Below, piece after piece: positions 2,737-17,040 of a stretch of 20,000 nt of DNA. A program made the position numbers and the translations under genes. Location: the IMG/VR virus record IMGVR_UViG_3300046519_000369. One strand, written 5' to 3'. Within the stretch, counting starts at the first letter, position 1. Each line of letters begins with the position of its first letter. Source of the stretch: an uncultured virus (IMG/VR IMGVR_UViG_3300046519_000369) (Duplodnaviria > Heunggongvirae > Uroviricota > Caudoviricetes). The notes beneath the pieces were generated by a model. That model saw only the letters and a list, made by a program, of their open reading frames with translations, was not told the DNA's origin and made no database searches.

Positions 2737-3126
2737 ATGGAACCAGTTTCTACTAGCGGTTTAACAGCACTTTTAAAATTTTACGGTGCAGCAATTATGG
2801 TGACTTTAGCGGTCGCATTAGTTGCTGCAGTTGTTTTGATGACACGTATGCCGCGCTCACCTCAAGAATGGGCCGTGGGGCTCATTTGTACGGTTGTATC
2901 AAGTCTCGCAGGTGGCTCATTTATTATCGTGAAGTGGGGGCTTCATGAATGGGTTACTGATGTGTGGGGAATGATTGCCTTAGGGGGCTTCTTCTTCATA
3001 TGCGGTATTCCCGGCTGGGCTTTAGTTCGATGGATCTTTAACTTCATTGCTAAACAAGAAGGTAAAACAATTGTTGAAGTGATCAAAGAAGTTAAAAAAG
3101 CCAAAGATGATATTCAAAATAGTTAA
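2737..3126 (+). CDS. Phage holin
   Basis: 129 aa, ~3 TM segments, charged C-terminus, GGAG RBS, upstream of the endolysin. Confidence 0.8.
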   Translation: MEPVSTSGLTALLKFYGAAIMVTLAVALVAAVVLMTRMPRSPQEWAVGLICTVVSSLAGGSFIIVKWGLHEWVTDVWGMIALGGFFFICGIPGWALVRWIFNFIAKQEGKTIVEVIKEVKKAKDDIQNS

Positions 3127-3244
3127 CCGCCTTCAGGCGGTATTATTCAATAGTTCACTTATATTTCTGTCATCTGTCGGAATTAATCAAATGATTTAGA
3201 GACTTGTTTATACTAAATGTTCAAAATAAAAACAGGATAACGCC

Positions 3245-4117
3245 GTGAAAAAGATAATTTTAGCAACAGTAATGGGTTTCAGTGGAGTAGGTAGTGCTTT
3301 TGCCGAGTGTACCTATAGCTTTGATGCAACTTTACAGGATTTAAAAGCATTAGAAGCAGCAGTAGGTGGAAGTACATCAAATTACCGATATATTGAGAAA
3401 GTTGCCAATATAAATAGCGCTAATCAATCTGGTTATGATCTTATAAATTATTACTCAAATAAAAATGTTGACTTATATTTAGCTTCTAAAAAGTATGCTC
3501 AATTTAAAACCCAGTATCATCTTAAAACTCCAGATAATGTTGTTTTAATTGATAAGCCTATTGCCACTTCAAATATCTTTGTCCAAGAATTTGTTTTTGA
3601 TGTTAGCAATTTGCAAGTCAATCTTGGTACTACTTCGCAAATTTATAATTACGGTTTTTTAGTCACAGGTTCTTCTCAGAGCAAAATAGAATTAGCCTTA
3701 AACGTAATTTTTGTTAAAGCAAATAATTATTCAGGCGCGATAAATGGTAATTCTATTACTGTGTTGGGTGTAACTAATAAATCAGATGGTACAGGTTATC
3801 TAGCGCCTTTAAGTGCCGCTAGCACAAATATTCCTGTACAAATACCAGCTGATGGAAAGGTCAGAGTGGGCATTTATGTAAACCAAAATAGCAAACAAGT
3901 TGGTTATATAATTAATGGTACTAACTATGGCTATCTAAATATTGTTATGGAAAACAAATTAAGTAATATCAGCTTTACTGGTGTAATTAATCAAAATCCA
4001 TTTGCTAACTCTGCTTTGACTGGTAAAACGGTTGGGCTTCAATTGGTTACAGATAAGTCTAAAATGCAGTTTACTTATCCTACTGGAGCTAAGGATATTT
4101 GTGGAGTAGCGTTGTAA
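3245..4117 (+). CDS. Secreted protein, DUF4882-like (moron)
   Basis: Signal peptide (..SAFA-ECTYSFDAT), N- and C-terminal Cys, beta-rich; resembles Acinetobacter DUF4882 proteins from memory; flanked by hairpins at ~3125-3141 and ~4151-4168. Confidence 0.6.
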   Translation: MKKIILATVMGFSGVGSAFAECTYSFDATLQDLKALEAAVGGSTSNYRYIEKVANINSANQSGYDLINYYSNKNVDLYLASKKYAQFKTQYHLKTPDNVVLIDKPIATSNIFVQEFVFDVSNLQVNLGTTSQIYNYGFLVTGSSQSKIELALNVIFVKANNYSGAINGNSITVLGVTNKSDGTGYLAPLSAASTNIPVQIPADGKVRVGIYVNQNSKQVGYIINGTNYGYLNIVMENKLSNISFTGVINQNPFANSALTGKTVGLQLVTDKSKMQFTYPTGAKDICGVAL

Positions 4118-4329
4118 AACTGCGAATTAAATTAGCTATTTTTTCTCAACAGCCACCTTCGGGTGGTTCTATTTTATAAAAGAGTAGTTTTGAGGTTTAA
4201 TTTATTTTTATTAAGTGATTGAAAGTATTGTATTATTTTTTAGTAATAGTTAAAATCTTCGTCACTTTTAATAATATTAATTTTATTAAAATTTCATATA
4301 AATATTTGATTAGTATAAGGGTGTTTTAA

Positions 4330-4668
4330 ATGTTGAGATGGCTTATCTTTCTTGTTATTCCTATCATGCTTCCAGGTTCTTTATATCCTCTGTTGATTGA
4401 GTTAACTAAAGCATTTAATGACATAGCTCAAAGAGTTGTTGCCCTTATAGTTATGTATATTGTAGCTGCTTTTATTGCTGCGACAGTAACTTATGAAAAT
4501 AATCCATATGGTAATAAATTGAAACCTGTCATTGTAGTGTTATCAATTGGAGCATTATTATTTTTTATTTCTTCCAAAACTTTAATCGCGATTATTTATC
4601 TTATTGCAAGTATATTTATAGTTGTAAAGTGGCATAAGAAATTTAAGGATAAACCTTTGCCAAATTGA
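4330..4668 (+). CDS. Small multi-TM membrane protein (moron)
   Basis: 112 aa, ~4 hydrophobic segments, very AT-rich leader, own terminator. Confidence 0.65.
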   Translation: MLRWLIFLVIPIMLPGSLYPLLIELTKAFNDIAQRVVALIVMYIVAAFIAATVTYENNPYGNKLKPVIVVLSIGALLFFISSKTLIAIIYLIASIFIVVKWHKKFKDKPLPN

Positions 4669-4702
4669 ATAGCAATTTAACTAGTTAAGAATATTTCAAC
4701 CT

Positions 4703-4724
4703 AACCCGCATATGCGGGTTTTTT
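4703..4724 (+). terminator. Rho-independent terminator
   Basis: aacccgc-atat-gcgggtttttt. Confidence 0.8.
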
Positions 4725-4743: not shown

Positions 4744-5289
4744 ATGAACATTGAACAATATCTTGAAGAATTGATTAAACGCGAAGGTGGTTACGTGAAT
4801 AACCCTGCTGACCGTGGTGGCGCAACTAAGTACGGTATTACTGAAGCAGTTGCTCGAGCAAACGGGTTTAAAGCCAGTATGAAAGACTTACCTCTTGAGG
4901 TGGCCAAGTCTATTTATCGTAAACAATACTGGATCTCACCGCGTTTTGATCAGGTGAATGCCGTTTCTTCTGCAGTAGCTGAAGAGTTATTAGATACCGG
5001 TGTGAACTGTGGTACCGGCTTTACAAAACCACTTTTACAGCGTGCATTAAACCTACTGAATAATCAGGGTAAAGCAGGGTGGTCAGATTTAACTGTTGAT
5101 GGAATTTATGGTCCAGCGACATTAAATGCACTAAAAACTTTTCTGGCCAAACGTGGGAAAGATGGGGAGAAGGTTTTGCTTCGAATACTCAACATCATGC
5201 AAGGCCAGCGTTACATTGAAATTTGTGAACGTAATCCAAGCCAAGAACAATTCTTTTACGGTTGGATTGCTAACCGAGTTTCATTATGA
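4744..5289 (+). CDS. Endolysin, glycoside hydrolase family 108 with C-terminal peptidoglycan-binding domain
   Basis: EGGYVNNPADRGGATKYGIT motif, VDGIYGPATL, FFYGWIANRV end. Confidence 0.95.
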   Translation: MNIEQYLEELIKREGGYVNNPADRGGATKYGITEAVARANGFKASMKDLPLEVAKSIYRKQYWISPRFDQVNAVSSAVAEELLDTGVNCGTGFTKPLLQRALNLLNNQGKAGWSDLTVDGIYGPATLNALKTFLAKRGKDGEKVLLRILNIMQGQRYIEICERNPSQEQFFYGWIANRVSL

Positions 5290-5384
5290 AGGTTCTGGTT
5301 TTGCTGTGCATTTTGCTTTCAAGATGCACAGCTCATACTATCAATAATAATGTGAATGTGGGTATTTGTGTGAAAGCTCTCTGA
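5286..5384 (+). CDS. 32-aa lipoprotein-like lysis-cassette peptide (not in ORF track)
   Basis: MKVLVLLCILLSRCTAHTINNNVNVGICVKAL*; ATGA overlap with the endolysin stop; homologous copies at 7490 and 8598. Confidence 0.75.
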   Translation: MKVLVLLCILLSRCTAHTINNNVNVGICVKAL

Positions 5385-5398
5385 CGAGGGCTTTTTTT
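5373..5398 (+). terminator. Lysis cassette terminator
   Basis: aaagctctc-tgac-gagggcttttttt. Confidence 0.8.
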
Positions 5399-5495
5399 AT
5401 AAATAATTTTAACTGTAAAATCTAGAGCATAATTGACCATACTAACTTAAATAGCAGTAACTTTCATGCTAAATGGATTAGTTATTTTACATATA

Positions 5496-5918
5496 TTAGT
5501 CCAGAAGCCCAGCTATCCAGAAACCATGATTTGCGCAACTATCGGGAATAGAAGGGGTGACATGTGTAGATTTTACTTCATCTAATAGGCCACCGCCTAT
5601 TGATATTTCTTCGCCAATTAAAACAGATCGATTTGAAAAACTATTGGTAATTTTAAATATACCATTTCCTAGGTTTTCTAATTTGCTGCCATAGCGCCAA
5701 ATAATTAATGGACCCGTTTCATCGCCGAGTCTGATACATCCATTTTTATCTGCATAAAGCTTTCCATGTGCTGAGGCCATCATTGAAATATTACTTCTAG
5801 TATTGCTTGTGATAAGTATCGGTTGAATAGAGACCTCTTCATTGTTAGCTATAATAGGCTTTATCATGCAAGAAGTAACACTAATAGTCATTAACGATGC
5901 TAAGAGTTGTATTTTCAT
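5496..5918 (-). CDS. Lipoprotein, hypothetical (immunity-like)
   Basis: Lipobox-like VTSC; GKL...GCIRL...LIIW...IGEEISIGGG...IPDSC. Confidence 0.7.
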   Translation of the reverse strand: MKIQLLASLMTISVTSCMIKPIIANNEEVSIQPILITSNTRSNISMMASAHGKLYADKNGCIRLGDETGPLIIWRYGSKLENLGNGIFKITNSFSNRSVLIGEEISIGGGLLDEVKSTHVTPSIPDSCANHGFWIAGLLD

Positions 5919-5930
5919 ATAAGGGCTTTT

Positions 5931-6359
5931 TTACTTTTTAGTAATAGGTTCTATAAGTTGATTGATAATAACACCTTTACTTAGATCACATGCTGGTTCG
6001 GGTTTAACGATCCAGTTGTAGTCATTCAAATTAAGTGCATAAGCTTCTCCACTACCATAAGCAATAGTATCACCCTCTTTATATTCTTTTGAGTCAACAA
6101 TTAAAAGATGCTTATTGCTATCCCAATGAGCATCTTTAGTTGCGAAAACAGGAAGGACTCGATCACTTTCATGCATTAAATAAACACACGAATCTTCAAT
6201 TTTGATTTGTGCCTCGCTATAGCTTGCATTATCAGCAACGCCTGAGTAAGCAATTTTTGGCACAATAACCTTATTTTGAGGCTGAGAAGGATTAATACAT
6301 CCATTAAGCAAGATGACTAATCCAGTTAGAAAAGTGATTAAAATATTTTGTTTATTCAT
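5931..6359 (-). CDS. Lipoprotein, probable distant paralog of 5496..5918
   Basis: Lipobox LNGC; SCVYL...LPVF...EGDTIAYGSG...EPAC. Confidence 0.7.
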   Translation of the reverse strand: MNKQNILITFLTGLVILLNGCINPSQPQNKVIVPKIAYSGVADNASYSEAQIKIEDSCVYLMHESDRVLPVFATKDAHWDSNKHLLIVDSKEYKEGDTIAYGSGEAYALNLNDYNWIVKPEPACDLSKGVIINQLIEPITKK

Positions 6360-6515
6360 ACTTAATATACTAATGAAAAGCCTAAATTATAAAATTCGTC
6401 AGTAGACAGGTAATAGTATTCATTACATTGCCTAACTCTAGCACACGAGATAAGATTGATAGAATTTCATCAATAAAAGTTGATAAATAAAATGACTATA
6501 GTTTAGGAAAGATGA

Positions 6516-6884
6516 ATGGAAAGCGAATATACATATAGTTGTCTTTTAGCTGATAGAGGTATTCCACTATCATTAATCAATCCTGGAAGTACTGAGGTAG
6601 CTTTATATTTTGATGATGCTCTAATGGCTTTGGAAATGCATAAAAAAAATAAAACTATAATTTTAGGGGGGGATGTACTAATAGAAAAAGATGGTGAATT
6701 AATGTACGTATATCAATTATGGGGAAATGAGTATATTTATCTAAATTGGTATTTTGAACCTAATCAGAATAACTTGTCAGATTGTTACATGGCGAGTCAT
6801 GAAGCTGCTCTTAAGAACCTCTGTGAAATTAAAAAAAATAGTGATCAGTTCAAAACAACTTGCCTTATTGTTTTTGTTATCTAA
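6516..6884 (+). CDS. Imm40-like polymorphic-toxin immunity protein
   Basis: GIPL...EVAL..DDAL..L...ILGGDV...NWY...S pattern characteristic of Imm40. Confidence 0.75.
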   Translation: MESEYTYSCLLADRGIPLSLINPGSTEVALYFDDALMALEMHKKNKTIILGGDVLIEKDGELMYVYQLWGNEYIYLNWYFEPNQNNLSDCYMASHEAALKNLCEIKKNSDQFKTTCLIVFVI

Positions 6885-7048
6885 TTATTGTTTCCAACTA
6901 AAGTCACCTAATTTTTACTTTTTCTATAGAAAAAATTAACTTATTTCGGTTTGCAATTAGTCTTATTTATATATCAAAGCCTTATTATAAATAAGCTGGG
7001 ATATTTTTTTAGATTAAAATTTAAACTTATTCATTTAAAGAGAAAACT

Positions 7049-7423
7049 ATGGCTAATATTAAAATTCATGCGGGCGACTTCAATAAAGGAAAAGGAACTA
7101 TAAGTTTCATGTTTGGTAATTGTTCAATTACTCCTCCTTATGGTGACGGTGATAAATGGGCACCAACATCACATCCTATTGTTTCTGGGAATATTGAGGA
7201 AATATCCTTAGCCACGGAAGAGAATGTAAAAAGAATTGGTGGCACAGTTGGATGGGGGATTGCTGGGGCTGCTCTACTTGGTCCTTTAGGTTTATTGGCT
7301 GGTCTACTATTAGGTGGAAAAGGAAAAGATGTAACATTCATCTTAAAACTTAAAGATGGTAGAAAAATGCTAGCAACAACTGATAGTAAGTCATATACAA
7401 AACTTTCCGCTTTAGCTTTTTAA
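7049..7423 (+). CDS. Hypothetical protein with glycine-zipper membrane segment
   Basis: GGTVGWGIAGAALLGPLGLLAGLLLGG between beta-rich segments. Confidence 0.75.
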   Translation: MANIKIHAGDFNKGKGTISFMFGNCSITPPYGDGDKWAPTSHPIVSGNIEEISLATEENVKRIGGTVGWGIAGAALLGPLGLLAGLLLGGKGKDVTFILKLKDGRKMLATTDSKSYTKLSALAF

Positions 7424-7427
7424 ACCG

Positions 7428-7493
7428 ATTGAAATCTGTGAGCGCAACCCAAGCCAGGAGCAATTCTTTTATAGCTGGATTGCTTCACTATGA
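7428..7493 (+). pseudogene. Endolysin 3'-end remnant
   Basis: IEICERNPSQEQFFYSWIASL* versus endolysin IEICERNPSQEQFFYGWIANRVSL*; many synonymous changes and a 9-nt deletion. Confidence 0.9.
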
Positions 7494-7588
7494 AATTTCT
7501 GGTTTTGCTGTGCATTCTATTTTCAGGATGCACAGCTCATCCTATAAGTACAAATGTGAATACTTCTATTTGCGTTAGATCACTTTAA
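7490..7588 (+). CDS. Second copy of the 32-aa lipoprotein-like peptide
   Basis: MKFLVLLCILFSGCTAHPISTNVNTSICVRSL*, followed by ccctga-tttc-tcaggg hairpin. Confidence 0.7.
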   Translation: MKFLVLLCILFSGCTAHPISTNVNTSICVRSL

Positions 7589-7784
7589 AAAAATCCCTGA
7601 TTTCTCAGGGCTCAGTTTTCCTTAAATAAAGGTACCTTTTGGTCATCATAATTGCCCTCTATCCCAATTAGAGCGTGAAATTGGCTATGATATTTTCGGT
7701 TTAGAAGGATACTTAGATGGTGGATCACATCACATAGTGAATTTTTTGATAATTTAATCAAAACCAGAGGCTAAGATAACTAAT

Positions 7785-7807
7785 AAAAAAGGGGCTTTTC
7801 GCCCCTT
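7785..7807 (-). terminator. Terminator for 7827..8246
   Basis: aaaaaaggggc-tttc-gcccctt type hairpin with A run on the left. Confidence 0.75.
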
Positions 7808-7826
7808 AATTATTTAAACTTCTTTT

Positions 7827-8246
7827 TTATTTACTTTTGAAAATATAAATACCACTAAGAATTAAGAACATAGCTTGGAATAAAAACCATCCAAGTGTTG
7901 AATAATTAGAACACTTAGTGATGGAATCATAAATAATCTCCTTATAAGATACGGTTTCCATCATGTTTAGTAGTATTAATTCAGCTAATAATAGAACTAG
8001 AGAAATAACAGTGTAAAAATACTTATTTCTTATAAAAATTAAAATTATTGAAACGATGATCGATAATAAGCCACACATCCCTAACATTGATGGATCATTA
8101 GCTGAAACCCCATTTAACTCTTTAAAATAGGTAATAGTGCCTATAGCAATATATTCATTAATACATAAATCTTGCCCAAACTTATCTATCGTATATCCGC
8201 CTATACCTGATAAGAATAAAAATAATATGGCTACATATCTAATCAT
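7827..8246 (-). CDS. Orphan multi-TM immunity protein, paralog of 9451..9894
   Basis: YFKELNGVSANDPSMLGMCGLLSIIVSIILIFIRN aligns with YLRDMQGSADDDSVLIWFFGIISVVLGLIMFFVKN; starts 3 nt after the effector remnant stop. Confidence 0.75.
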   Translation of the reverse strand: MIRYVAILFLFLSGIGGYTIDKFGQDLCINEYIAIGTITYFKELNGVSANDPSMLGMCGLLSIIVSIILIFIRNKYFYTVISLVLLLAELILLNMMETVSYKEIIYDSITKCSNYSTLGWFLFQAMFLILSGIYIFKSK

Positions 8247-8249
8247 AAT

Positions 8250-8594
8250 TTACAAACTCAATTTTAATGATGGATCAAATTTCCATGTTTCAACTTGTAG
8301 TTCTGGATCTGCTCGGCAAGTTCCTTGGCATCCATCTGGAATTGCTATTACATCACCATTTGCATCTGTACAGATCACAACAAAAGTTTCATAGAGCCAA
8401 TCAGGATTCCTTTTATCAATGTTCATCAACTCTGCTGTTAATCCTACTTGCATCTCTCCAAAGCCATAGCTGTTATGAGGGTAGACTTCACCTAAGTTAA
8501 GATAAAAGGATAAGAGGTTTTTTCTATAAGCCCATACACCATGCATTTTTTCTTCAAATACAATAGATGCAACGATCTGAGGATCTATTACATT
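8250..8594 (-). pseudogene. Truncated, internally deleted lytic transglycosylase effector remnant
   Basis: Frame extends upstream of 8546: IDPQIVASIVFEEK...PHNSYGFGEMQVGLTAEL...NGDVIAIPDGCQGTC matches VDPLAVGSIIFQEK...PHRSYGLGEMQLGLAADL...NGIIYSKPDNCEAC of 9891..10889. Confidence 0.85.
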
Positions 8595-8595
8595 T

Positions 8596-8688
8596 GATGC
8601 TCAGCTAATACGATCAATAGCAATGTGAATGTATCAATCTGCGTTAGAGCACTTTAAAAAAAGCCCTGAGGGATCAGGGCTATTTTTG
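8596..8688 (+). pseudogene. Third, 5'-truncated copy of the small lipoprotein plus terminator
   Basis: CSANTINSNVNVSICVRAL* (8598-8657), then agccctga-ggga-tcagggct. Confidence 0.85.
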
Positions 8689-8689
8689 T

Positions 8690-9319
8690 CTAGTTTTCAA
8701 ATTCCACATTATAAAGGGATGTTAAAGATGCCTTTAATTTTTCATCTTTAGTTTCTGCAATGTACTCTTGCATTTTCTCTTTATACTCAGGGTGTCCAGC
8801 TTTATATTTTGCATACAAGTATGAGAACTCGCCTATCTTATAATCAGGGTCGGTCTTGTTTTCGGGTTTATCTAGTTCCACTTTTAGAACTTCTGCAACG
8901 TGGTCATAGCACTTATTAACCAAAGTACTTTCTTTCTTTTGTAAAGTTAGTAGCTGACATCTAAATGTAAGTCTTGCTGTGTCATTTGGTTTCTCTGCAA
9001 GTTGCTTATCATTCAATGCTTGTGCTTCTTCATATTTTTGCAAAGTCATGTAGATATTCATTTGCATAAATTCACGTTTTTTCTTATCCGAAATCTTACT
9101 GACTTCGGGCAATACTTCTACCATCTTTTTTTGAAATTCTTCAAAGTTACCCTCGCGGTAATATTTAAAGTAACTTTCATATTTATCAATGATTTTCTGA
9201 TCTTCGGCAGATATCAGCTTAGGTGCTGTGATTTCGCTTTGTTTTGTACTATCCGAAGCATTGCTACAGCCACCAAGAAATGATGAATAAACGATAAATA
9301 GGGTTAAATACTTTTTCAT
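8690..9319 (-). CDS. Helical (TPR-like) lipoprotein, probable orphan periplasmic immunity protein
   Basis: Lipobox LGGC; IYMTLQKYEEAQAL...KPND TPR-like helix pair; context. Confidence 0.65.
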   Translation of the reverse strand: MKKYLTLFIVYSSFLGGCSNASDSTKQSEITAPKLISAEDQKIIDKYESYFKYYREGNFEEFQKKMVEVLPEVSKISDKKKREFMQMNIYMTLQKYEEAQALNDKQLAEKPNDTARLTFRCQLLTLQKKESTLVNKCYDHVAEVLKVELDKPENKTDPDYKIGEFSYLYAKYKAGHPEYKEKMQEYIAETKDEKLKASLTSLYNVEFEN

Positions 9320-9386
9320 ACTTATGATTGAGTCTGCTTTAGAGGGGACGCCTTTTTCTGGACCACATTTAGATTAAATGTATTAT

Positions 9387-9415
9387 AAAAAGCCCTAAAT
9401 AATTAGGGCTTTTTT
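9387..9415. terminator. Bidirectional terminator
   Basis: aaaaagcccta-aataat-tagggcttttt. Confidence 0.8.
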
Positions 9416-9416
9416 C

Positions 9417-9444
9417 TTGAGTATAGAGATATCTCTATACTCAA
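9417..9444. repeat. Perfect 28-bp palindrome
   Basis: ttgagtatagagat|atctctatactcaa. Confidence 0.95.
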
Positions 9445-9450
9445 ATTCCA

Positions 9451-9894
9451 TTATGCTTCTTTAGGTTTATGTTTAATATTCAATAATATGAATAAAATGG
9501 TATAAATAAGTAAGGAAATAAGCCACAGAATTAAATAAATATTTTGATCGAATTTAATAGTATTTATAACAAGTTGGTTGATTGGATCACTTTCAGCTAA
9601 AAATGCGCTTAAAAATAAGAAGATATAAACAAAAAAACCTATTCTTAAAACATAAGTTATATTTTTAACAAAGAACATAATAAGGCCAAGTACGACACTT
9701 ATAATTCCAAAGAACCATATTAAAACACTATCGTCATCTGCTGAGCCTTGCATGTCTCTTAAATAAATATATTCATCTACGCCGTAAGGGGCAAAAGTCA
9801 CAAATCCTTTAGATAAGGATTCAAAGCAAATGGCTAAAATGCCCGATACTATCAATACGATAGCCAAGTAATATTTTAAGTTTAGAGTTTTCAT
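9451..9894 (-). CDS. Multi-TM cognate immunity protein candidate
   Basis: ~4 TM segments; ATGA overlap with the effector stop. Confidence 0.75.
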   Translation of the reverse strand: MKTLNLKYYLAIVLIVSGILAICFESLSKGFVTFAPYGVDEYIYLRDMQGSADDDSVLIWFFGIISVVLGLIMFFVKNITYVLRIGFFVYIFLFLSAFLAESDPINQLVINTIKFDQNIYLILWLISLLIYTILFILLNIKHKPKEA

Positions 9895-10889
9895 ATTCCT
9901 GTATATCCTTCCCCAGCTTTCCAGTATTTATGCAATGTGCGTGGGGTTGCGGTACATGCTTCACAATTATCCGGTTTAGAATAAATAATACCGTTTAAAG
10001 CTTGTTTAATGGATTCTTGCCAATTTCTTGATCGATTATAAACTCTAGAGGGACTATCAAAACTAGCCTTATTAGTTGAAGGATCCAGATAAGAATCTAA
10101 ACCCTTCTCACCAGCATTGTGCAGTATTGTAGCTTCCCTAGGGGTGAGCTGGCGGCCTAATTTTAATTGCTTTAAAGAAATATTCTTAGCGACAAGATCA
10201 GTTGCTACTTGAGGGTCGTTAGTGATGAGGTCAAATGTCTTTCTAAGCCTATTTGGGTCACTCTCCAGATAACCTAGCAGATCTGCGGCCAAACCTAATT
10301 GCATTTCACCAAGTCCATAGCTTCTATGAGGTTTAACGCCTCCGCGGTCTTTCGCATATGCAATATAGTTCTTGGCGATGGCTGCTGCTGAAAAGAATTT
10401 TTCCTGAAAAATAATTGAACCAACAGCCAACGGATCCACACCATACTTTGCTGCGGAGGTATTAATGGCTGCATTGTAATAGGCAACCATATTTAAGCCA
10501 TCCGGTGCTGGTACTGAACGATTAACCATAACATGATCAAGATTGTGGTCTTTTTCTTGGCTAGTTTTATGAGCAACTAATTTAACTTGATGTACTGTGT
10601 GCGTTACGCTACTGCCTGATTCTTTCGTGTATGTAGTGCCAACGAAAGGTTGGGGCTCTAACAATCTACCAGTCGGCAAGTACACATTAAATCGAACAGT
10701 ACAGTTTTTAGCATTTTCATTTTTCTGAAGTGGGAAACTTGTCTCTACAGATATACCTGAAGGGTTGATTTTCAACTTGCCCGTTTCAAACTTTCTACCA
10801 GTATCTTGCGCGATAAATAAAGCAGAAAATGAGAAGTTGGTATAATCGCCTAATCCTCTTAATCTCAACTGTGCATAACATGTACTCAT
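9891..10889 (-). CDS. Putative T6SS peptidoglycan-targeting effector (SLT/lysozyme-like fold)
   Basis: AAKYGVDPLAVGSIIFQE (catalytic Glu), SYGLGEMQ, LHNAG resemble SLT motifs I-III; no signal peptide; ATGA-coupled to the VgrG tip. Confidence 0.75.
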   Translation of the reverse strand: MSTCYAQLRLRGLGDYTNFSFSALFIAQDTGRKFETGKLKINPSGISVETSFPLQKNENAKNCTVRFNVYLPTGRLLEPQPFVGTTYTKESGSSVTHTVHQVKLVAHKTSQEKDHNLDHVMVNRSVPAPDGLNMVAYYNAAINTSAAKYGVDPLAVGSIIFQEKFFSAAAIAKNYIAYAKDRGGVKPHRSYGLGEMQLGLAADLLGYLESDPNRLRKTFDLITNDPQVATDLVAKNISLKQLKLGRQLTPREATILHNAGEKGLDSYLDPSTNKASFDSPSRVYNRSRNWQESIKQALNGIIYSKPDNCEACTATPRTLHKYWKAGEGYTGI

Positions 10890-11257
10890 TCTGTGTCTTC
10901 CTCACTTGGCGGCACAGGATCCGGATAATCATGGTTCTCTAAAAGATGGAAAGACATTTGTTCTTCTTTCTGGGTATATATCCGTTGAGTGTAGCCATTT
11001 TCATCAGTCATACCTTCAAATTGCCTACCTGATTCTGATATTGCGAAATATGCTTTATTTTTATAGGGTGCATTTTGATTATCAATTAATTGAACACTTA
11101 AATTAAATATACCTTTACTTTCGGGTAATACTGGAAAGTGGCTAACAACTTGTTCACCCGACTTGAATATATGTTGACCAGCTTTAACCTCAAATTTACC
11201 TCCCGTTATTATCGTAATACCTTTATCATTAATTACAATACGTGAACCACCCGCCAT
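10886..11257 (-). CDS. vgrG: VgrG C-terminal fragment (end of DUF2345 plus transthyretin-like extension); possibly a pseudogene
   Basis: AGGSRIVINDKGITIITGGKFEVKAGQHIF is the Acinetobacter-type VgrG tail; PYKNKAY...EGMTDENGYTQRI is a TTR-like domain; no gp27/gp5 body upstream. Confidence 0.85.
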   Translation of the reverse strand: MAGGSRIVINDKGITIITGGKFEVKAGQHIFKSGEQVVSHFPVLPESKGIFNLSVQLIDNQNAPYKNKAYFAISESGRQFEGMTDENGYTQRIYTQKEEQMSFHLLENHDYPDPVPPSEEDTE

Positions 11258-11329
11258 ACTTTTTTATTCTCAAATTTAAATTTATGTGATTAGAATAACA
11301 TAACTTGTTTAAACTCAAAAAATACACTT

Positions 11330-12031
11330 ATGACCATGATTGTTTCGGCGCATCTCGGAGATTGTATACTGATTGCCGCTGATAAAAGAGCGATGGTATA
11401 TGATATAAACTCTGGATTATTAAGAATATCTCATGATGATGAGGCGAAAATAAAGTTATGGTGCCGTGGTGCTATTACAGGCACAGGAGACAGTTTATTT
11501 ATAAATCGTATAATGAATTATTTTGAAAATTTAACAGAACAAGAACAAAAACTTGAACAAGTGAATGCTATTCAAATGGAAATAGAAAGAAGATTGTCTG
11601 AAGGGGTTCCAAAAGAGCTTCTTTCTAATAATACGCTTATATTCTCAATATTTAATGGCTGTAAAACCTCATTATATATAATACCCATACAGCCATTTTT
11701 TGAGACATTTAAACTTGGTAGTCGCGAACATTTAAGGTCCCAAGTTAATGAAATTAAAGAATGGACCATAGAGGTATGCTGTTTAAATATTCCTTCCGAT
11801 TTAGCATTATTACAAGACTTCCAGCGCAATTTAAGGAGCTTAAATAGCTTTGAAAGTGAGGGGCAATTCATTAGTTACTATATAGAGCATTTAAAGACTA
11901 TTTTTGCGAAACAAGCTTCTATAGATACTAGTGTTACACCGTCTTTTGACCTGTATTTACAATCATGTGAGACTGGAGGTAGCTTTGCCATTCATATTGA
12001 GAACAACTTTTTAACAACTTCAAATGTGTAA
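11330..12031 (+). CDS. Proteasome beta/HslV-like Ntn hydrolase
   Basis: M-T start, TMIVSA...DCILIAADKR, AKI, ITGTGD; matches the Thr1/Asp17/Arg19/Lys33/Gly47 pattern. Confidence 0.7.
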   Translation: MTMIVSAHLGDCILIAADKRAMVYDINSGLLRISHDDEAKIKLWCRGAITGTGDSLFINRIMNYFENLTEQEQKLEQVNAIQMEIERRLSEGVPKELLSNNTLIFSIFNGCKTSLYIIPIQPFFETFKLGSREHLRSQVNEIKEWTIEVCCLNIPSDLALLQDFQRNLRSLNSFESEGQFISYYIEHLKTIFAKQASIDTSVTPSFDLYLQSCETGGSFAIHIENNFLTTSNV

Positions 12032-12092
12032 TATTTTGCCCATTGGTCCAACTGGACCAAGATTAACTAAGTTATTTTTGGCTCGAAAGAAT

Positions 12093-12221
12093 TATTTGGC
12101 CAAACGTGGGAAAGAAGGCGCGAAATTTTTAGTCTGAGTTCTCAACATTATCCAAGAACAGCGTTACATCGAAATCGGTGAACGTAATCCCTCTCAGAAG
12201 CAATTCTAACCGTATTTCATG
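12093..12221 (+). pseudogene. Endolysin 3'-end remnant (decayed)
   Basis: YLAKRGKEGAKFLV*VLNIIQEQRYIEIGERNPSQKQF versus FLAKRGKDGEKVLLRILNIMQGQRYIEICERNPSQEQF. Confidence 0.9.
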
Positions 12222-12234
12222 ATCTATTAAAAAT

Positions 12235-12268
12235 TATTTTGCTAGACGAATTTCAGTCTAGCAAAATA
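12235..12268. terminator. Hairpin between convergent units
   Basis: tattttgctagac-gaatttca-gtctagcaaaata. Confidence 0.6.
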
Positions 12269-12279: not shown

Positions 12280-13056
12280 TTACTTAAAAATTAATGCTCT
12301 CGAAACACGAATAGAATCATATAGAAAATGATTAACTTCGGTATTTAGAGCTGGATGAAAGTCAGGTATGGTCTGTTCAAAGTTTGTAGGTATAGAAAAA
12401 CGACTAATATATAATGGGATTAAATATCTCTCATCGTAAACAATAATATTTCTTTCATCTCCCGAACTGCACAAAACCAAAGCTGATTCACCTAATTGTA
12501 AATAAAATTTAAATCTAAATCCTGATCCATCATCATCAATAATTTGATTTTCATATAATTCTTGCCAACCATCTAAATGATTAATACTGAAAATTTTGTC
12601 ATTTAAAAATGGTGTTACAAAGAGATAGACATTTTCTGAAGGTTTTTTTGTTTTAAAAAAATCATGATAAAAGTTTAATTTTTTTTCTTTGAAAGAGCTT
12701 GGACCAGTAGCGAAGAAATTTAGAAAAATCTTATATATAAGAATTCTTAGTTTTTCTACACACTCTCGATTTAGAAAGTCTTTAGGATCCTTCCCATCTA
12801 TCATAACTTCTAGGAGATCTTTGCATGATTCATCAATATCACATAACCATCCATTATTACAGGATGCACAAACTTTATGGGTAAAAGTGTGTGGAATAGG
12901 AGTTGTTGGCTTAAAGACTTCAAGATTTTCTGATATTGAAGTAAAAGATAACTGCTTTTTTTTAATATCTAATTTTTTTATTACCCATTGAGGAATAACA
13001 TGTTCATTTGTTTTTTCTTTACCAGAAATCTCAGTTTTGCAATAAATGCATTCCAT
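12280..13056 (-). CDS. HNH endonuclease-domain protein
   Basis: CIYC...NEHVIPQW...VCASCNNGW. Confidence 0.85.
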   Translation of the reverse strand: MECIYCKTEISGKEKTNEHVIPQWVIKKLDIKKKQLSFTSISENLEVFKPTTPIPHTFTHKVCASCNNGWLCDIDESCKDLLEVMIDGKDPKDFLNRECVEKLRILIYKIFLNFFATGPSSFKEKKLNFYHDFFKTKKPSENVYLFVTPFLNDKIFSINHLDGWQELYENQIIDDDGSGFRFKFYLQLGESALVLCSSGDERNIIVYDERYLIPLYISRFSIPTNFEQTIPDFHPALNTEVNHFLYDSIRVSRALIFK

Positions 13057-13124
13057 TTTAACTATTCCTAGTTTTTGAATTTAAAATATTAATTATATAC
13101 AGGTGGTTGATATTGCTAAAGATA

Positions 13125-13571
13125 CTATTTTTTATAATACTCAGAATAAAATTTTTTCTTAATTGTAGGTATTAAACTCATTAGATGAGACCAACCTGTA
13201 TCGATAGATTTTGTATGAATATTAATTGAAAATTCCTTGTTTAGCGGGTATACACTTTTATCAATTAGCTTAAAAGGCTCATTAATATCATCAAACTGGT
13301 GGGCTGTTAGATCAATAATACTATTTTCAGACTCTAACCAAAAATGGTGTGCATCATCTGTGTTAGTTCCCCTCATCATTTTAAAATTAGAATATTCTTC
13401 TTCTTCTAATATACTTAACAAAATACTAGATACTTCCTCACAATAGTTTCTAGGAAATGTTTGAATCCTGCCATAAGAAGGCAGTTCTTTTTGAAAACAC
13501 TCTAAAGCGCTGACAATAATTTCAATTAGTTTTTCATGTTCATTCATATTAGATCTCTTATTAATCACCAA
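13125..13571 (-). CDS. Papain/transglutaminase-like Cys-His-Asp protein (start possibly 13547)
   Basis: FPRNYC...HHFWLE...IIDLTAHQF. Confidence 0.65.
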   Translation of the reverse strand: MVINKRSNMNEHEKLIEIIVSALECFQKELPSYGRIQTFPRNYCEEVSSILLSILEEEEYSNFKMMRGTNTDDAHHFWLESENSIIDLTAHQFDDINEPFKLIDKSVYPLNKEFSINIHTKSIDTGWSHLMSLIPTIKKKFYSEYYKK

Positions 13572-13596
13572 CTATTCCTAAAATTAGAATCATTAA

Positions 13597-13917
13597 CTAT
13601 TCTTCACTTATACATTTAAATCTGATTTCTGTTTTAGGAAAGTTACCCAAAATGTAAGGTGGTTTTGCATCAATGGCTTCTAAGACACTAACAGATTTAA
13701 TTGTTTTCTGGCATTATTGATATGCTTCTTTCATTGTATCTGCTTTAAGTGTTCCCATCCCACTAAAACCGGTAGCAGCTTGACGTGAGACCATATAAGT
13801 ATTATTTCCCATAGGTACAATACCTGAATTTGCAGCGCACCCTACAATTAGAAAACTATAAATTGTAATCAAGATTTTTTTATTAAAAGAAGCAGTAAGC
13901 ATGAAATTTTGATCCAA
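13597..13917 (-). pseudogene. Lipoprotein interrupted by an in-frame stop
   Basis: Lipobox IVGC; after TAA at 13714-13716 the frame continues CQKTIKSVSVLEAIDAKPPYILGNFPKTEIRFKCISEE* to 13597. Confidence 0.8.
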
Positions 13918-14029
13918 TAAACAAGTTTTTAAAGTAAATCTTACTTAAGATTACTACTTATTTTTCTATGTGACAATTAGTAACCAATTTGTTAGATTAT
14001 GTGAACTTTATAAAAAACATTGAAAATTC

Positions 14030-14473
14030 ATGAAGAAAATATTAGTTACTAGTTTAATTGGATTGGCTTTAGGTGGGTGTACATCAATCCAAGTTAATAA
14101 TGCCACTGGATTTAATCCTGAGTCTATTCGACAAGTTTGTGTTGTTGACAACCCGAAAGTTGTCATCAAGGATTTTAATCAAATCATCGAGCGAAGTTTT
14201 AAACGCTATAATATTGATGCTAAAACTTATAAGGATACTGATAACTTAAGTCTTTGTCAGACGACTTTGAACTATACAGCTACTCGTTCTTGGGATATGG
14301 CTCCATATATGGTTGCTGCTCAATTCAATCTTTTGCAGAATGGCAGACAAGTTTCTGAAGCATCTTTTAGATTACGTGGAAATGGTGGACTAGCCCCAAA
14401 TAAATGGCGTAGTACCGAAACGAAGATTAATGAGTTGGTTGATCAGTTGTTAAATAAAGTACAATCGAAGTGA
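14030..14473 (+). CDS. Sbal_3080-like lipoprotein
   Basis: Lipobox LGGC; VCVVDNPKV...YTATRSWDMAPY...KW...KINELVDQL. Confidence 0.75.
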   Translation: MKKILVTSLIGLALGGCTSIQVNNATGFNPESIRQVCVVDNPKVVIKDFNQIIERSFKRYNIDAKTYKDTDNLSLCQTTLNYTATRSWDMAPYMVAAQFNLLQNGRQVSEASFRLRGNGGLAPNKWRSTETKINELVDQLLNKVQSK

Positions 14474-14483
14474 GTTATCTAAA

Positions 14484-14972
14484 ATGAAAAAGATTATTTT
14501 TACTTTAGTTCTTGGGTGGATTGTTTCATCATCTGCATTTTGTCAAATTATTTGGCAAAATGCAGAGAAAGGAATGAGTGTTGCTCAAGTTAAGAAAAAC
14601 TTTCCTAAAGCTCAGAGTGTTCAGCCAACTGATGGAACAACATTAGGGGACGGGGCTCTAAGATTATTAGAGTTGTCAGACTATGATATTAATAATTTCA
14701 AATTTGATGCATTTTTCTATTTTAAGGATGCCAAATTAATACAAGTTACCTTAAAAGCCAAGGATTCAGAAAATCAGGCTCTTGTTTATAAAAAAATGGT
14801 TGAGGCATTTCGCATGAAATATGGCGAAGAAAAATCAACTAATAATATGAGTATTGGACAAGAAAAACGTTGGATAACGAAGGATAAAACTGAAATAACT
14901 GTTTCTTTGTTAGGTGGCGATATGAATATTTATTATTCAGCCCGAATCGGTAATGAGCTAAATAAAATATAA
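14484..14972 (+). CDS. Secreted/periplasmic hypothetical protein
   Basis: Signal peptide; WQNAEKGMSVAQVK...F...KL..V...KYGE. Confidence 0.7.
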   Translation: MKKIIFTLVLGWIVSSSAFCQIIWQNAEKGMSVAQVKKNFPKAQSVQPTDGTTLGDGALRLLELSDYDINNFKFDAFFYFKDAKLIQVTLKAKDSENQALVYKKMVEAFRMKYGEEKSTNNMSIGQEKRWITKDKTEITVSLLGGDMNIYYSARIGNELNKI

Positions 14973-15004
14973 TCAAAAGGAAAATTAGCAAGTTCATTAG
15001 CTAA

Positions 15005-15033
15005 TAAAAAAGCACCTTAGGGTGCTTTTTTTA
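15005..15033. terminator. Bidirectional terminator
   Basis: aaaaaagcacc-tta-gggtgcttttttt. Confidence 0.75.
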
Positions 15034-15349
15034 AATTATTATGAATTTCTTTAATTAACTCATCAACCTCTAAGTTTGATACTTCAACTTCAGTTTCATT
15101 ATTGATTGTAAACTTTTTAATTTTACTTGCTTTATATGAGTTGATAAGCCATGTTGCAAGGGTTTTAAGCACATCATATGATGCTCCGGCCGCAACACCA
15201 ATTACTATATCGTATAAAGCGCTATCACAAGTTAGCCCATTATAATTTCGAGGTACCACAGTTAATTTAAAATTAGAATTCAATAAATTATCTTTCTGGA
15301 AAGAGGCAATATCCTCAATAAATATCTTGTTAAATTCAATTTTTTGCAT
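15017..15349 (-). CDS. Hypothetical protein with central small-residue hydrophobic helix
   Basis: 110 aa, GAGAG RBS; IVIGVAAGASYDVLKTLATWL. Confidence 0.6.
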   Translation of the reverse strand: MQKIEFNKIFIEDIASFQKDNLLNSNFKLTVVPRNYNGLTCDSALYDIVIGVAAGASYDVLKTLATWLINSYKASKIKKFTINNETEVEVSNLEVDELIKEIHNNLKKAP

Positions 15350-15418: not shown

Positions 15419-15868
15419 TCATTCCTTATCCTTATGTACATAATGATCTTCAACAATCAGCCAACCAAGACTTTTTTTACCATTATCTACAACATCAATA
15501 TGATTGTTGCCTTTATAAACCAGAACATCTTTATTAAAAAACTTCAATGAATTCCAGAAAGAAGAGTTACTCAAAACTTCCAGAGATAGATGGATATCAT
15601 CACGAAGACTTGAAAGTCCCTGTGTGTAATCCAAATCAAGCGTATTCAACAATTTCCCATAAATGACACGCTTTTTACCATCTTTTAACGGGATTATTCT
15701 GACATCAGCTTGGTTGTTGCTAAAATTAGTCGCCGGTAAAAAACTCTCTTCTAGACGATGTACTGCTTCAGCATTTATTGATCTACCGCTTTCTTTAGCC
15801 GCATCTTCAACTTGTTGTTTGAGTTCTTGTGGAACACGTAAATTAAATTGAGGATCTGTTCTAGCCAT
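15419..15868 (-). CDS. Arc-family ribbon-helix-helix repressor (Mnt-like position) with C-terminal extension
   Basis: MARTDPQFNLRVPQELKQQVEDAAKESGRSINAEAVHRLEES. Confidence 0.9.
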   Translation of the reverse strand: MARTDPQFNLRVPQELKQQVEDAAKESGRSINAEAVHRLEESFLPATNFSNNQADVRIIPLKDGKKRVIYGKLLNTLDLDYTQGLSSLRDDIHLSLEVLSNSSFWNSLKFFNKDVLVYKGNNHIDVVDNGKKSLGWLIVEDHYVHKDKE

Positions 15869-15903
15869 CAAAGTGAAGTCCAAAAATTTTTATAAGAATA
15901 TGC

Positions 15904-15957
15904 TAGTACCGTGCTTGACTTCAATATTAGCACCGTAATAGTATTATCACCGTGATA
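15904..15957. promoter_or_regulatory. Divergent promoter region with three 13-bp operator-like palindromes
   Basis: tagtaccgtgctt 15904, tagcaccgtaata 15928, tatcaccgtgata 15945; TTGACT 15915 and TAGTAT 15939 (18-bp spacer). Confidence 0.7.
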
Positions 15958-15976
15958 TCACAAAACGGAACACTAT

Positions 15977-16132: not shown

Positions 16133-16200
16133 AAAAACAATGAAGCCCCTGAATCTTGGCGGACTAGGGGCTTCTATCCAACTCGGTTAGGAGATCAGAT

Positions 16201-17011: not shown

Positions 17012-17040
17012 GTGGAGATGACGGGAGTTGAACCCGCGTC
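17012..17040 (-). other. tmRNA (ssrA)-like 3'-end fragment, att-like site
   Basis: Minus strand GACGCGGGTTCAACTCCCGTCATCTCCAC: T-arm plus acceptor 3' strand with U at the G3-U70 position and A discriminator; no 5' part of the RNA adjacent. Confidence 0.85.

Follow-up and report, generated by a model that had tools for sequence, protein, structure and literature searches.

We analysed a 20,000-nt stretch of DNA from an uncultured member of the Caudoviricetes (IMG/VR record IMGVR_UViG_3300046519_000369), referred to here as the window, and compared it with IMG/VR fragments and one genome per species (L numbers denote comparison loci). Table 1 lists its features. The resident lysis cassette consists of a full-length endolysin gene, a small lipoprotein ORF and a closing hairpin, the last of which is absent from the list of a simple terminator scan. 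The lipoprotein ORF is conserved behind GH108 lysins and also behind a CHAP-type lysin; lipobox position -1 is Gly in 49 of 50 distinct intact ORFs, the sole Arg being that of the resident ORF. In most related phages the holin-like gene immediately abuts the lysin, and window positions 2703-3144 run straight into 4717 onwards in many loci. The 1.6-kb insert found here between the two genes is present in L088, L061, L008, L033 and L041 and absent from most other loci. Behind the cassette, blocks of cargo genes (28-34% G+C, against 38-41% for the tail genes) alternate with three partial copies of the cassette 3' end, here called stubs.

Table 1. Features of the window referred to in the text
Feature	Position	Strand	Basis or remark
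129-aa membrane protein, probably holin	2737..3126	+	phrog_1024, E 2e-64
1.6-kb insert separating holin-like gene from lysin	3145..4716	+	
DUF4882 protein in insert	3245-4117		Pfam DUF4882, E 2e-16
112-aa membrane protein in insert	4330-4668		
Resident full-length endolysin, GH108 + PG_binding_3	4744..5289	+	Pfam E 7e-24 and 5e-18; phrog_315 endolysin
Resident 32-aa small lipoprotein ORF	5286..5384	+	conserved ORF
Hairpin + T-run closing resident cassette	5375..5398	+	read from sequence
Cargo block A	5399..7427		140-, 142-, 122- and 124-aa ORFs
140-aa ORF	5496-5918	-	
142-aa ORF	5931-6359	-	
122-aa ORF	6516-6884	+	
124-aa ORF	7049-7423	+	
Stub 1	7428..7612	+	last 19 lysin codons + stop, intact 32-aa ORF, hairpin
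Cargo block B	7613..8595	-	139-aa membrane protein + 98-aa remnant
139-aa membrane protein	7827-8246	-	
98-aa C-terminal remnant of 335-aa gene	8250-8546	-	
Stub 2	8596..8688	+	small lipoprotein ORF, codon 13 to stop, + bidirectional hairpin 8662-8681
209-aa lipoprotein gene, convergent on stub 2	8690..9319	-	phrog_26452
Four-gene module	9451..12031		147-, 332-, 123- and 233-aa ORFs
147-aa membrane protein	9451-9894	-	
332-aa protein	9891-10889	-	
123-aa VgrG C-terminus-like ORF	10886-11257	-	matches ends of 930-1134-aa ORFs
233-aa ORF	11330-12031	+	
Stub 3	12086..12222	+	lysin from profile position 384 to stop codon; no peptide ORF
Hairpin terminator of convergent 258-aa gene	12235..12268	-	in L185 directly after full lysin's stop
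Cargo block D	12280..15349		258-aa (-), 148-aa (-), 67-aa (-), 147-aa (+), 162-aa (+), 110-aa (-)
147-aa Sbal_3080-family lipoprotein in block D	14030-14473	+	NF040519, E 3e-41
Conserved right arm of prophage	15419..17004		Pfam + PHROGs
Arc-like regulator	15419-15883	-	
Bro-N anti-repressor	16201-17004	+	
tRNA-like or tmRNA-like 3' end fragment	17014..17040	-	weak tmRNA 3'-part match

Self-blastn of 4200-5450 against the window gave three plus-strand matches: 5215-5357 with 7428-7561 (79%, E 1e-31), 5323-5359 with 8596-8632 (86%, E 9e-7) and 5133-5237 with 12086-12190 (79%, E 7e-21). A repeat search carried stubs 1 and 2 across their terminator hairpins, to 7612 and 8686, respectively. A DNA profile made from 63 distinct lysin units matched stub 1 at 7428-7599 (E 5.5e-23) and stub 3 at 12080-12207 (E 3.1e-28), and a second profile, of peptide plus terminator, matched stub 2 at 8596-8667 (E 2.9e-11). 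These searches confirm the four same-orientation copies, the resident one included, that the initial annotation had described. The third stub runs 12086-12222 (lysin stop codon at 12220-12222) and not from 12093, and the proposed unit of lysin end, 32-aa peptide and terminator is complete in its peptide only in stub 1 (ORF 7490-7588, lipobox LFSGC, hairpin 7595-7610); stub 2 starts at codon 13 of the ORF and stub 3 has none of it. A near-identical record (G001) contains the same four copies with unchanged spacing.

The copies had also been said to differ by many synonymous changes. This is true of the lysin codons of stub 1, where 7 of the differences across 19 codons are synonymous and 1 is not, but less so elsewhere, the synonymous/non-synonymous counts being 7/10 in the stub 1 peptide, 8/5 in stub 2 and 8/11 in stub 3. 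The resident is not the top-ranked allele for any stub (9th of 64 for stub 1, 27th of 62 for stub 2 and 6th of 64 for stub 3), in agreement with the earlier view of the remnants as diverged alleles and not duplicates of the resident. The farther a stub lies from the lysin, the more decayed it is: the lysin codons of stub 1 are clean and its peptide ORF is intact, and stub 3 carries an in-frame TGA and a 17-nt deletion.

The ORFs of block A matched no family of known function in Pfam, PHROGs and further family searches. In L008, L061/L134 and L133, sequence 90-95% identical to positions 5483-6431 follows the lysis cassette; the right end of the block differs in all four carrier phages (6055, 6363, 6431 and 7427), and 6432-7427 has distant relatives only. 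Stub 1, whose lysin is cut at profile position 472, begins 4 nt past the stop of the 124-aa ORF; for neither side of this joint, left or right, was a comparator found. Block B is 92-96% identical to L182, L089 and L029, three loci with an intact 335-aa gene in which the block comes directly after a full lysis cassette. Since stub 1 shares no more than 75-77% identity with the lysin ends of these carriers, and B-type homology begins at 7718, about 106 bp beyond the stub, its linkage to block B is one of architecture, not of allele identity.

Both parents of the next joint are known. L182/L089 homology stops at 8595 and L135-type homology begins at 8596, so that the 335-aa gene is cut mid-frame to 98 aa and fused to codon 13 of the lipoprotein ORF, with no clear microhomology at the joint; the 98-aa ORF matches the 332-aa protein (E 1e-13). 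From 8596 the lipoprotein ORF runs on into the 209-aa gene at 83% identity, as in L135, L136 and L141-L144. For the 209-aa gene, a lipoprotein gene plus terminator lies <200 bp from its 3' end in 42 of 49 loci, where stub 2 with the 209-aa gene is the native lysis-cassette flank; eight of these 42 lipoprotein-terminator units belong to a full GH108 unit. L182 homology returns at 10961, within the VgrG-tail-like gene.

The four-gene module also occurs elsewhere without a lysin nearby, and one of the long ORFs matched by its 123-aa ORF is VgrG by Pfam. Window 10961-12190 is 85-86% identical to L182/L089, and the left joint of stub 3 (233-aa gene to lysin position 384-389) is common to the window, L182 and L089, with differing right sides. 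Stub 3 has an L185-type end, with another hairpin immediately after the lysin stop. Its right flank is 96% identical to L185 (77/80) but the stub core only 88/115, and this similarity switch, at a conserved QFFYGWIA-coding stretch inside the stub, is the only hint of exchange through a stub. Further right, identity is 95% to L184 over 12092-15036 and 89% to L185 over 12081-13090. The full lysin of L185 is contiguous with the 258-aa gene; in L184, block D follows a stub whose left edge (profile 345) and left partner are different. The cargo differs between remnants and varies among carriers, as first proposed, and the expectation that the same cassettes follow full lysins in other phages is borne out by block B (L089, L182, L029), by stub 2 with the 209-aa gene (eight loci) and by stub 3 with the 258-aa gene (L185).

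The right arm is 91-97% identical to L088, L133 and L089. The fragment beyond it, where L089 homology stops (17041), is likely the right attachment site: it matches the tmRNA 3' part weakly (E 1.2e-7, under the gathering score), and no tRNA or tmRNA gene was called in the window.

Stubs of this kind are general. A lysin-based sample had the full unit in 97 loci, 49 of them with at least 3 kb downstream, representing 37 distinct downstream contexts. At least one stub was found in 10 of the 37. All 14 stubs lie on the lysin strand, are 5'-truncated and end at profile 627-683; their 5' edges vary (profile 384, 472 and about 582 here; 276-591 elsewhere). Mirror-image 5' stubs stand upstream of the full lysin in L008 and L133, and the L133 stub is 95% identical to the window lysin, its full lysin 82%. 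Cargo breakpoints had been expected to coincide with the remnants, but many (5487, 6431, 7718, 9413, 10961, 15036 and 15412) fall away from them. Because joints outside the cassette end leave no trace of this kind, part of the apparent preference for the lysin end may be an ascertainment effect.

We concluded, with a probability of roughly 0.7, that 4744 to about 17040 is an accessory-gene (moron) region of an Acinetobacter prophage that has grown by stepwise recombination with related phages. The stubs are best read as recording the stacking of cargo from different related phages, block after block. We infer the order of events from L182/L089, whose arrangement is presumed to be an earlier state: full lysin, peptide, terminator, 139-aa gene, intact 335-aa gene, then a 117-aa VgrG-tail gene, a 233-aa gene and a lysin stub from profile position 386-389. 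The window differs from it in three changes: block A and a new full cassette precede the old lysin, which is truncated (stub 1); only 98 aa of the 335-aa gene remain, joined at 8595/8596 to L135-type sequence, with L182 homology resuming at 10961; and an L185/L184-type right flank lies behind stub 3. No donor >96% identical was found for any step among the IMG/VR fragments and the genomes compared.

In each step one side of the exchange would be homologous or colinear, on the left through the conserved late genes and lysin, on the right through the VgrG-tail-like gene, the Arc/Bro arm or the att site. The other side would be an illegitimate joint that either landed in a lysis cassette's 3' end or was cut from it, and every step would therefore leave a 5'-truncated, co-oriented stub. 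Stub 1, and probably stub 3, would be the displaced end of a former resident cassette, and stub 2 the hitch-hiked upstream flank of incoming cargo. Stubs 2 and 3 adjoin the hairpin that serves the convergent cargo gene on their right; therefore, any event carrying this gene along with its terminator has to break within the cassette end, on the left of the hairpin. Two candidate routes are homology-facilitated illegitimate recombination following DNA uptake and a misaligned crossover, either phage-phage or prophage-phage; both may have contributed. The first of these was reportedly described by de Vries and Wackernagel in 2002 in naturally transformable Acinetobacter. As proposed for the window, it combines one homologous anchor with an illegitimate end joint nearby, and foreign DNA is gained while some recipient DNA is lost. 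Joint 8595/8596 paired with the homology at 10961 would fit this pattern, but the absence of clear microhomology there is a difference.

The initial annotation, whose interpretation holds in part, had seen in the lysin end a reusable handle that builds an integron-like array. Such recombinase-free exchange, in which the lysin end, full or stub, would itself be the substrate, cassettes would loop out between copies and reinsert by a single homologous crossover, and stubs would be functional handles, is in our view unlikely. It accounts for the co-orientation of every stub, it also predicts a stub 3 left joint kept in three phages with differing right sides, and the rise in identity to L185 inside stub 3 is compatible with a crossover. 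However, the 5' edges fall at different lysin and peptide positions and stub lengths vary by event, the left joints look illegitimate, and the copies are just 73-89% identical across 90-185 nt, a poor substrate for homologous recombination. Moreover, block A ends differently on its right in each of its four carriers, the native neighbour of stubs 2 and 3 is the cargo on their right and not that on their left, and no recombinant stub with near-identical halves was found. We therefore prefer stepwise stacking by one homologous side and one illegitimate joint, with the stubs better read as by-products, that is, displaced or hitch-hiked flanks. The earlier remark that no dedicated recombinase is visible stands, as Pfam found no recombinase family among the 27 window ORFs.

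Quite improbable is the repeated collapse of tandem prophages, in which related phages neighbouring at one site would have their cargo regions fused by a large deletion from the first phage's cargo end into the second phage's lysin. Its product is expected to be identical to that of a misaligned crossover, and in some IMG/VR records there are two full lysis cassettes, or the lysis genes of another phage are preceded by a lipoprotein-terminator unit and 209-aa gene (L050, L157, L158). Every round, however, needs a deletion of tens of kilobases ending within about 200 nt of the lysin end, the att-like fragment is single-copy in the window with none beside a stub, and the event at stub 2 replaced an internal segment delimited by homology in the VgrG-tail-like gene, which is not a prophage fusion. 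Local tandem duplication of the resident cassette end, with divergence in place and cargo inserted between copies, is hardly credible: the copies are co-oriented and within 7.5 kb, but every stub has other alleles nearer to it than the resident, the mostly synonymous lysin differences of stub 1 indicate divergence while under selection, stubs or their positions have full-cassette counterparts in other phages, and the cargo is not constant among carriers.

Among known systems, integron arrays are likewise ordered, with co-oriented unrelated cassettes punctuated by a repeated element, but no integrase or attC-like site was found in the window, and its repeated elements are pieces of genes that vary in extent and whose joints are not conserved. 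Arrays of orphan modules occur for cdiA-CT/cdiI in Acinetobacter, for rhs and for Vibrio cholerae T6SS effector-immunity genes, and for the Acinetobacter cdi arrays a homologous anchor, an illegitimate 3' joint and sequential 5'-to-3' displacement have been proposed (PMC6336857). These arrays resemble the window in having a full-length gene followed by co-oriented, 5'-truncated, diverged 3' fragments with their own downstream genes, in fragments that match full genes elsewhere, in decay that rises with distance, and in the proposed route of homologous anchor plus illegitimate joint (PMC6336857). The window differs in that its anchor is a phage endolysin with a small lipoprotein gene and not a polymorphic toxin, its cargo consists of unrelated independent genes and not of the anchor's variable tip with an immunity gene, at least one stub (stub 2) arrived with incoming DNA and was not displaced, and the array lies inside a mobile prophage. 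The array is best read as stacking of the orphan-array type, as in cdi, rhs and T6SS, and not as a site-specific system of the integron kind.

The Hendrix/Juhala model describes phage morons, and mosaic joints that arise by illegitimate recombination. The window shares with these low-G+C accessory genes that have their own terminators and stand between conserved phage modules, joints placed at or near gene boundaries, and partial gene copies as recombination scars. It differs in that up to three scars of one cassette end are stacked in one array, and the same kind of scar recurs among related contexts at the frequency given above. Stacked and recurring in this way, the scars give an ordered record of successive gains.

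We identified three co-oriented, 5'-truncated copies of the lysis-cassette 3' end (stubs 1-3) downstream of the complete, resident lysis cassette, which consists of a GH108 endolysin gene, a 32-aa lipoprotein ORF and a terminator. Self-blastn aligned stub 1 (7428-7561) with 5215-5357 at 79% identity (E 1e-31), stub 2 (8596-8632) with 5323-5359 at 86% (E 9e-7), and stub 3 (12086-12190) with 5133-5237 at 79% (E 7e-21), all on the plus strand. The repeat search extends stub 1 through its hairpin to 7612; stub 2 continues through its hairpin to about 8688, and by sequence reading stub 3 reaches the lysin stop codon at 12220-12222. All three were confirmed by DNA profile searches, and the remnant coordinates in the initial annotation proved correct to within a few bases by self-blastn, profiles and sequence reading. 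The stubs had also been described as alleles from different phages, and the comparison with other loci agrees with this. The resident allele ranks 9th of 64 by nearness to stub 1, 27th of 62 for stub 2 and 6th of 64 for stub 3, and is never the nearest. Stub 1 differs from the resident by 7 synonymous and 1 non-synonymous changes in its lysin codons and by 7 and 10, respectively, in its peptide ORF, which is intact; stub 2 differs by 8 synonymous and 5 non-synonymous codons; stub 3, the distal and most decayed one, differs by 8 and 11 and carries an in-frame TGA and a 17-nt deletion. From the allele ranks and codon differences we concluded that the stubs are diverged alleles. The alleles closest to the stubs among about 200 loci are only 76-89% identical; since no full-length allele in this set exceeds 96% identity to any stub, the donors could not be named.

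Layout of the window from left to right
Feature	Position	Strand	Remarks
Window as a whole			Right arm of an Acinetobacter prophage
Tail fibre and beta-helix tailspike	3-2607		
Holin-like membrane protein, 129 aa	2737-3126		
Insert of 1.6 kb: DUF4882 protein and 112-aa membrane protein	3145-4716		Between the holin-like gene and the lysin
GH108/PG_binding_3 endolysin, resident	4744-5289		
32-aa ORF, then hairpin	5286-5384		ORF overlaps the endolysin
Small ORFs without known family			About 10 kb, between the lysis cassette and the Arc-like gene
Arc-like regulator and Bro-N anti-repressor	15419-17004		
tRNA-like or tmRNA-like 3' fragment	17014-17040	minus	Just past the Bro gene
Chromosomal GntP-family permease gene, then SDR gene			Right of 17014-17040

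The nearest record, which is near-identical to the window, has the same four lysin-end copies with identical spacing. The 1.6-kb insert is present in some relatives (L088, L061, L008, L033, L041; L-numbers denote comparator loci from other phages or genomes) and missing from most. The fragment just past the Bro gene is probably the right attachment site of the prophage. It resembles the 3' part of tmRNA only weakly (E 1.2e-7, under the gathering score), and a complete gene for tRNA or tmRNA was called nowhere in the window, its right end included. Two palindromic terminator hairpins, one after the tailspike gene (2612-2638) and one after a 162-aa cargo gene (15006-15032), are 93% identical and lie 12.4 kb apart; homology to L184 stops at 15036, close to the second hairpin. 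A broken lysin is found in A. seifertii (L103, 10001-10412), with positions 1-303 of the lysin-unit DNA profile and then positions 286-395 inverted, at a distance of about 3 kb from a chromosomal flank shared with window 16888-20000 (90%). This locus appears to be a decayed prophage in the site that the window's prophage occupies.

Counterparts of the stubs and their cargo were sought in lysin-relative loci (the best 80 of 526 confirmed IMG/VR loci and 25 loci of species-representative genomes) and in further loci gathered around four cargo genes. The first part (5483-6431) of block A, the cargo in front of stub 1, lies behind the lysis cassette in L008, L061/L134 and L133 at 90-95% identity. 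Block B, between stubs 1 and 2, is 92-96% identical (window 7718-8595) to the DNA directly behind a full lysin, peptide gene and terminator in L182, L089 (A. pittii) and L029, i.e., at the position of stub 1. L182 and L089 have the whole 335-aa gene, behind which come a 117-aa VgrG-tail-like gene, a 233-aa gene and a lysin stub that runs from profile position 386-389 on through the peptide gene and terminator. Stub 2 together with the 209-aa gene (8596-9413) forms an unbroken 83% alignment to L135, L136 and L141-L144, in which the corresponding DNA is the end of a full cassette and its convergent neighbour gene. Homologues of the 209-aa gene have a lipoprotein gene and terminator within 200 bp of their 3' end in 42 of 49 loci, and 8 of these 42 belong to a full GH108 unit. 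Stub 3 with the 258-aa gene (12081-13090) is 89% identical to L185, where a full lysin without the peptide gene is directly followed by the 258-aa gene. In L184, block D (12092-15036, 95%) lies behind a stub with an earlier start (profile 345), which has a truncated 332-aa gene as its left partner. The check suggested in the initial annotation, for a full lysin followed by the same cassette in another phage, was thus positive for stub 2 (L135 type) and stub 3 (L185), and for stub 1 at the level of architecture only. At megablast level, GenBank phages matched in lysin or peptide pieces (22 records) but nowhere in the cargo.

The joints were located by comparison with these loci. Stub 1 begins 4 nt past the stop codon of a 124-aa ORF. 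Stub 2 starts exactly where the L182/L089-type homology ends (8595). This point lies within the 335-aa gene, which has been cut down to its last 98 codons (8250-8546; E 1e-13 against its 332-aa paralogue), and no clear microhomology was found at the 8595/8596 joint. The L182-type homology restarts at 10961, within the VgrG-tail-like gene. We therefore concluded that 8596-10960 is a replacement whose left end is illegitimate and whose right end is homologous. L182 and L089 share the left joint of stub 3, with 70/90 and 75/90 identical positions in the left flank. The stub 3 core is about 77% identical (88-90 of 115) to every comparator and, past the 17-nt deletion, identity with L185 rises to 77/80; a crossover point was not found within the core, and only this jump in identity at the 3' end was seen. 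The 5' edges of the stubs vary, at profile positions 384, 472 and about 582 in the window and 276, 345, 386, 400, 459, 498, 499, 539 and 577-591 in relatives, and the right end of block A falls at four different positions in four carriers. The initial annotation had taken the lysin end for a reusable homology handle and suggested testing whether cargo breakpoints coincide with the remnants; this reading is not supported, as many breakpoints lie elsewhere (5487, 6055, 6363, 6431, 7718, 9413, 10083, 10961, 13090, 15036, 15412).

The simplest account of the array is stepwise stacking by recombination, in which each step combines a side that is homologous or colinear with an illegitimate joint on the other. 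From an L182-like starting array, a new lysin with block A would have come in from the left, cutting the old lysin at position 472 and leaving stub 1. A piece made up of the peptide end, terminator, 209-aa gene, membrane protein gene and 332-aa gene would have entered through an anchor at its right end, in the VgrG-tail-like gene, and left stub 2, and the right side of stub 3 would have been swapped for an L185-type end with block D. Stubs would always keep their 3' end because the hairpins in or beside them serve neighbouring cargo genes and because long duplications would be unstable; the hairpin at 8662-8681 has a terminator score on both strands, and that at 12235-12268 on the minus strand. 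Homology-facilitated illegitimate recombination is documented in transformable Acinetobacter. The joints may have arisen by DNA uptake, by phage-phage crossover or by collapse of tandem prophages, candidate routes alike, and for the last of these the attachment-site-like fragment, present in a single copy in the window, gives no support.

The array has a close likeness in the orphan arrays of cdi, rhs and T6SS loci. In both, a full anchor gene has behind it 3' fragments in the same orientation that lack their 5' part and have downstream genes of their own, and these fragments are alleles of other lineages that are joined to full genes elsewhere. For Acinetobacter cdi orphan arrays, a published account (PMC6336857) proposes sequential displacement by means of a homologous anchor and an illegitimate joint on the 3' side, and the 8595/8596 joint with homology from 10961 is compatible with such formation. 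The phage array differs from these polymorphic-toxin displacement arrays in its anchor, a phage lysis cassette, and in its cargo, which consists of unrelated genes rather than the toxic C-terminal tip of the anchor with a cognate immunity gene. Lysin alleles have a conserved end, and separate ORFs of no known family, on either strand, make up the cargo. Like phage morons, the blocks are extra genes that some relatives have and others lack, are associated with hairpin terminators and deviate in G+C content (28-34% in cargo vs. 38-41% in tail genes); promoter-scan sites were no more numerous than in shuffled sequence. The array had also been called integron-like with no dedicated recombinase visible. 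The second part of this description is correct, as Pfam detected no recombinase, integrase or transposase family in the 27 ORFs of at least 60 aa in the window; the integrase of the prophage itself would be encoded beyond it. An integron has an IntI-type tyrosine recombinase beside the array and an attC-type imperfect inverted repeat at a fixed junction, whereas here the junctions are lysin/peptide fragments with varying starts; because there is neither a recombinase family among the 27 ORFs nor a fixed site, the array is not an integron. In the open-access literature searched, we found no account of such stubs of the lysin end among prophage cargo.

To estimate how general such stubs are, we counted them in the lysin-based sample of 97 loci with a full unit, of which 49 had at least 3 kb of downstream sequence and were counted (the 48 with less than 3 kb were left out). 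These 49 loci represent 37 distinct downstream contexts, and 10 of the 37 contain at least one stub. All 14 stubs of the relatives are on the lysin's strand, lack their 5' part and reach close to the terminator. In this sample, no full lysin had a 5' lysin fragment downstream of it, and no array held more stubs than the three of the window. Mirror-image, 3'-truncated stubs (profile 1-245) of another allele occur about 0.7-1 kb upstream of the full lysin in L008 and L133. The upstream stub of L133 is 95% identical to the window lysin, and its full lysin 73-92% (60-nt windows).

The 32-aa ORF is a real, conserved gene for a small lipoprotein, with the consensus ...LLSGC followed by TAHTINSNVNVSICVKAL. 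This gene and the terminator are found 3' of GH108 lysins and also 3' of a 256-aa lysin (L155 6673-7538; L154-L181) that is non-homologous to the GH108 lysin and has a weak CHAP match. The small lipoprotein therefore belongs to the lysis cassette whatever the lysin type, and its role may be spanin-like. Position -1 of the lipobox is Gly in 49 of 50 distinct intact ORFs, the sole Arg being that of the resident, and the stub 1 copy (7490-7588) keeps the Gly. The resident lipoprotein may be unprocessed, and the stub 1 copy might serve as its substitute. The signal-peptide coding part contains an inverted repeat with 9-bp arms (5303-5332 and 7507-7536), which is kept in many alleles and missing from divergent L155-type alleles. 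This repeat was dropped as a candidate hot spot for joints, as the other stub edges are off-register and the divergent alleles lack it.

Part of the cargo may serve interbacterial competition or immunity. Residues 2-112 of the 123-aa ORF (10886-11257) match the ends of 930-1134-aa ORFs in three genomes, and one of these ORFs is a VgrG by Pfam; judged by its sequence, the 123-aa ORF is a homologue of the C-terminal VgrG tail. A 332-aa ORF and a 147-aa membrane protein ORF come after it, and a divergent 233-aa gene completes a four-gene module (9451-12031), which is also present in other Acinetobacter genomes with no lysin nearby, and the 332-aa family occurs in 7 of 121 Acinetobacter genomes searched. 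The module resembles a T6SS effector-immunity cassette that the prophage has as cargo, with putative effector and immunity roles that we infer for the 332-aa and 147-aa ORFs from their position. Pfam, NCBIfam, PDB and PADLOC gave no match for these roles; PDB sequence searches with the 332-aa and 123-aa ORFs and PADLOC on 18 cargo ORFs returned nothing, the AF2 model of the 332-aa protein (pLDDT 47.6) was too poor for a fold search, and Atlas gave only a lead, to SLT (0.87), for the effector/immunity roles in the 9451-11257 module. A second, decapitated pair at 7827-8546 consists of the last 98 codons of the 335-aa paralogue and an intact gene for a 139-aa membrane protein, and resembles an orphan-immunity pattern; the 335-aa/139-aa pair is intact in L182 and L089.

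A broader proposal, which we consider unlikely, is that prophage accessory regions in naturally competent Acinetobacter arise mainly through one-sided-homology capture. The conserved lysis cassette would be the universal anchor, and the retained stubs with their bidirectional terminators would be portable homology that lets cassettes pass between unrelated prophages. If true, it would mean a recombinase-free exchange of cassettes for lysogenic-conversion and interbacterial-competition genes that leaves behind a readable stratigraphy of gains. 

The stubs are an ordered, datable record of accessory-gene gain in a temperate phage, which is usually invisible, and they show that joints fall repeatedly at the 3' end of the lysis cassette across a widespread group of Acinetobacter prophages, in 10 of the 37 distinct contexts. 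Stub detection could delimit cargo cassettes automatically during prophage annotation. The stubs also tie the accretion of phage morons to the displacement logic of cdi, rhs and T6SS arrays, and the VgrG-tail-like gene with its putative effector and membrane-protein pair, together with the decapitated pair, suggests that prophages shuttle competition or immunity modules.
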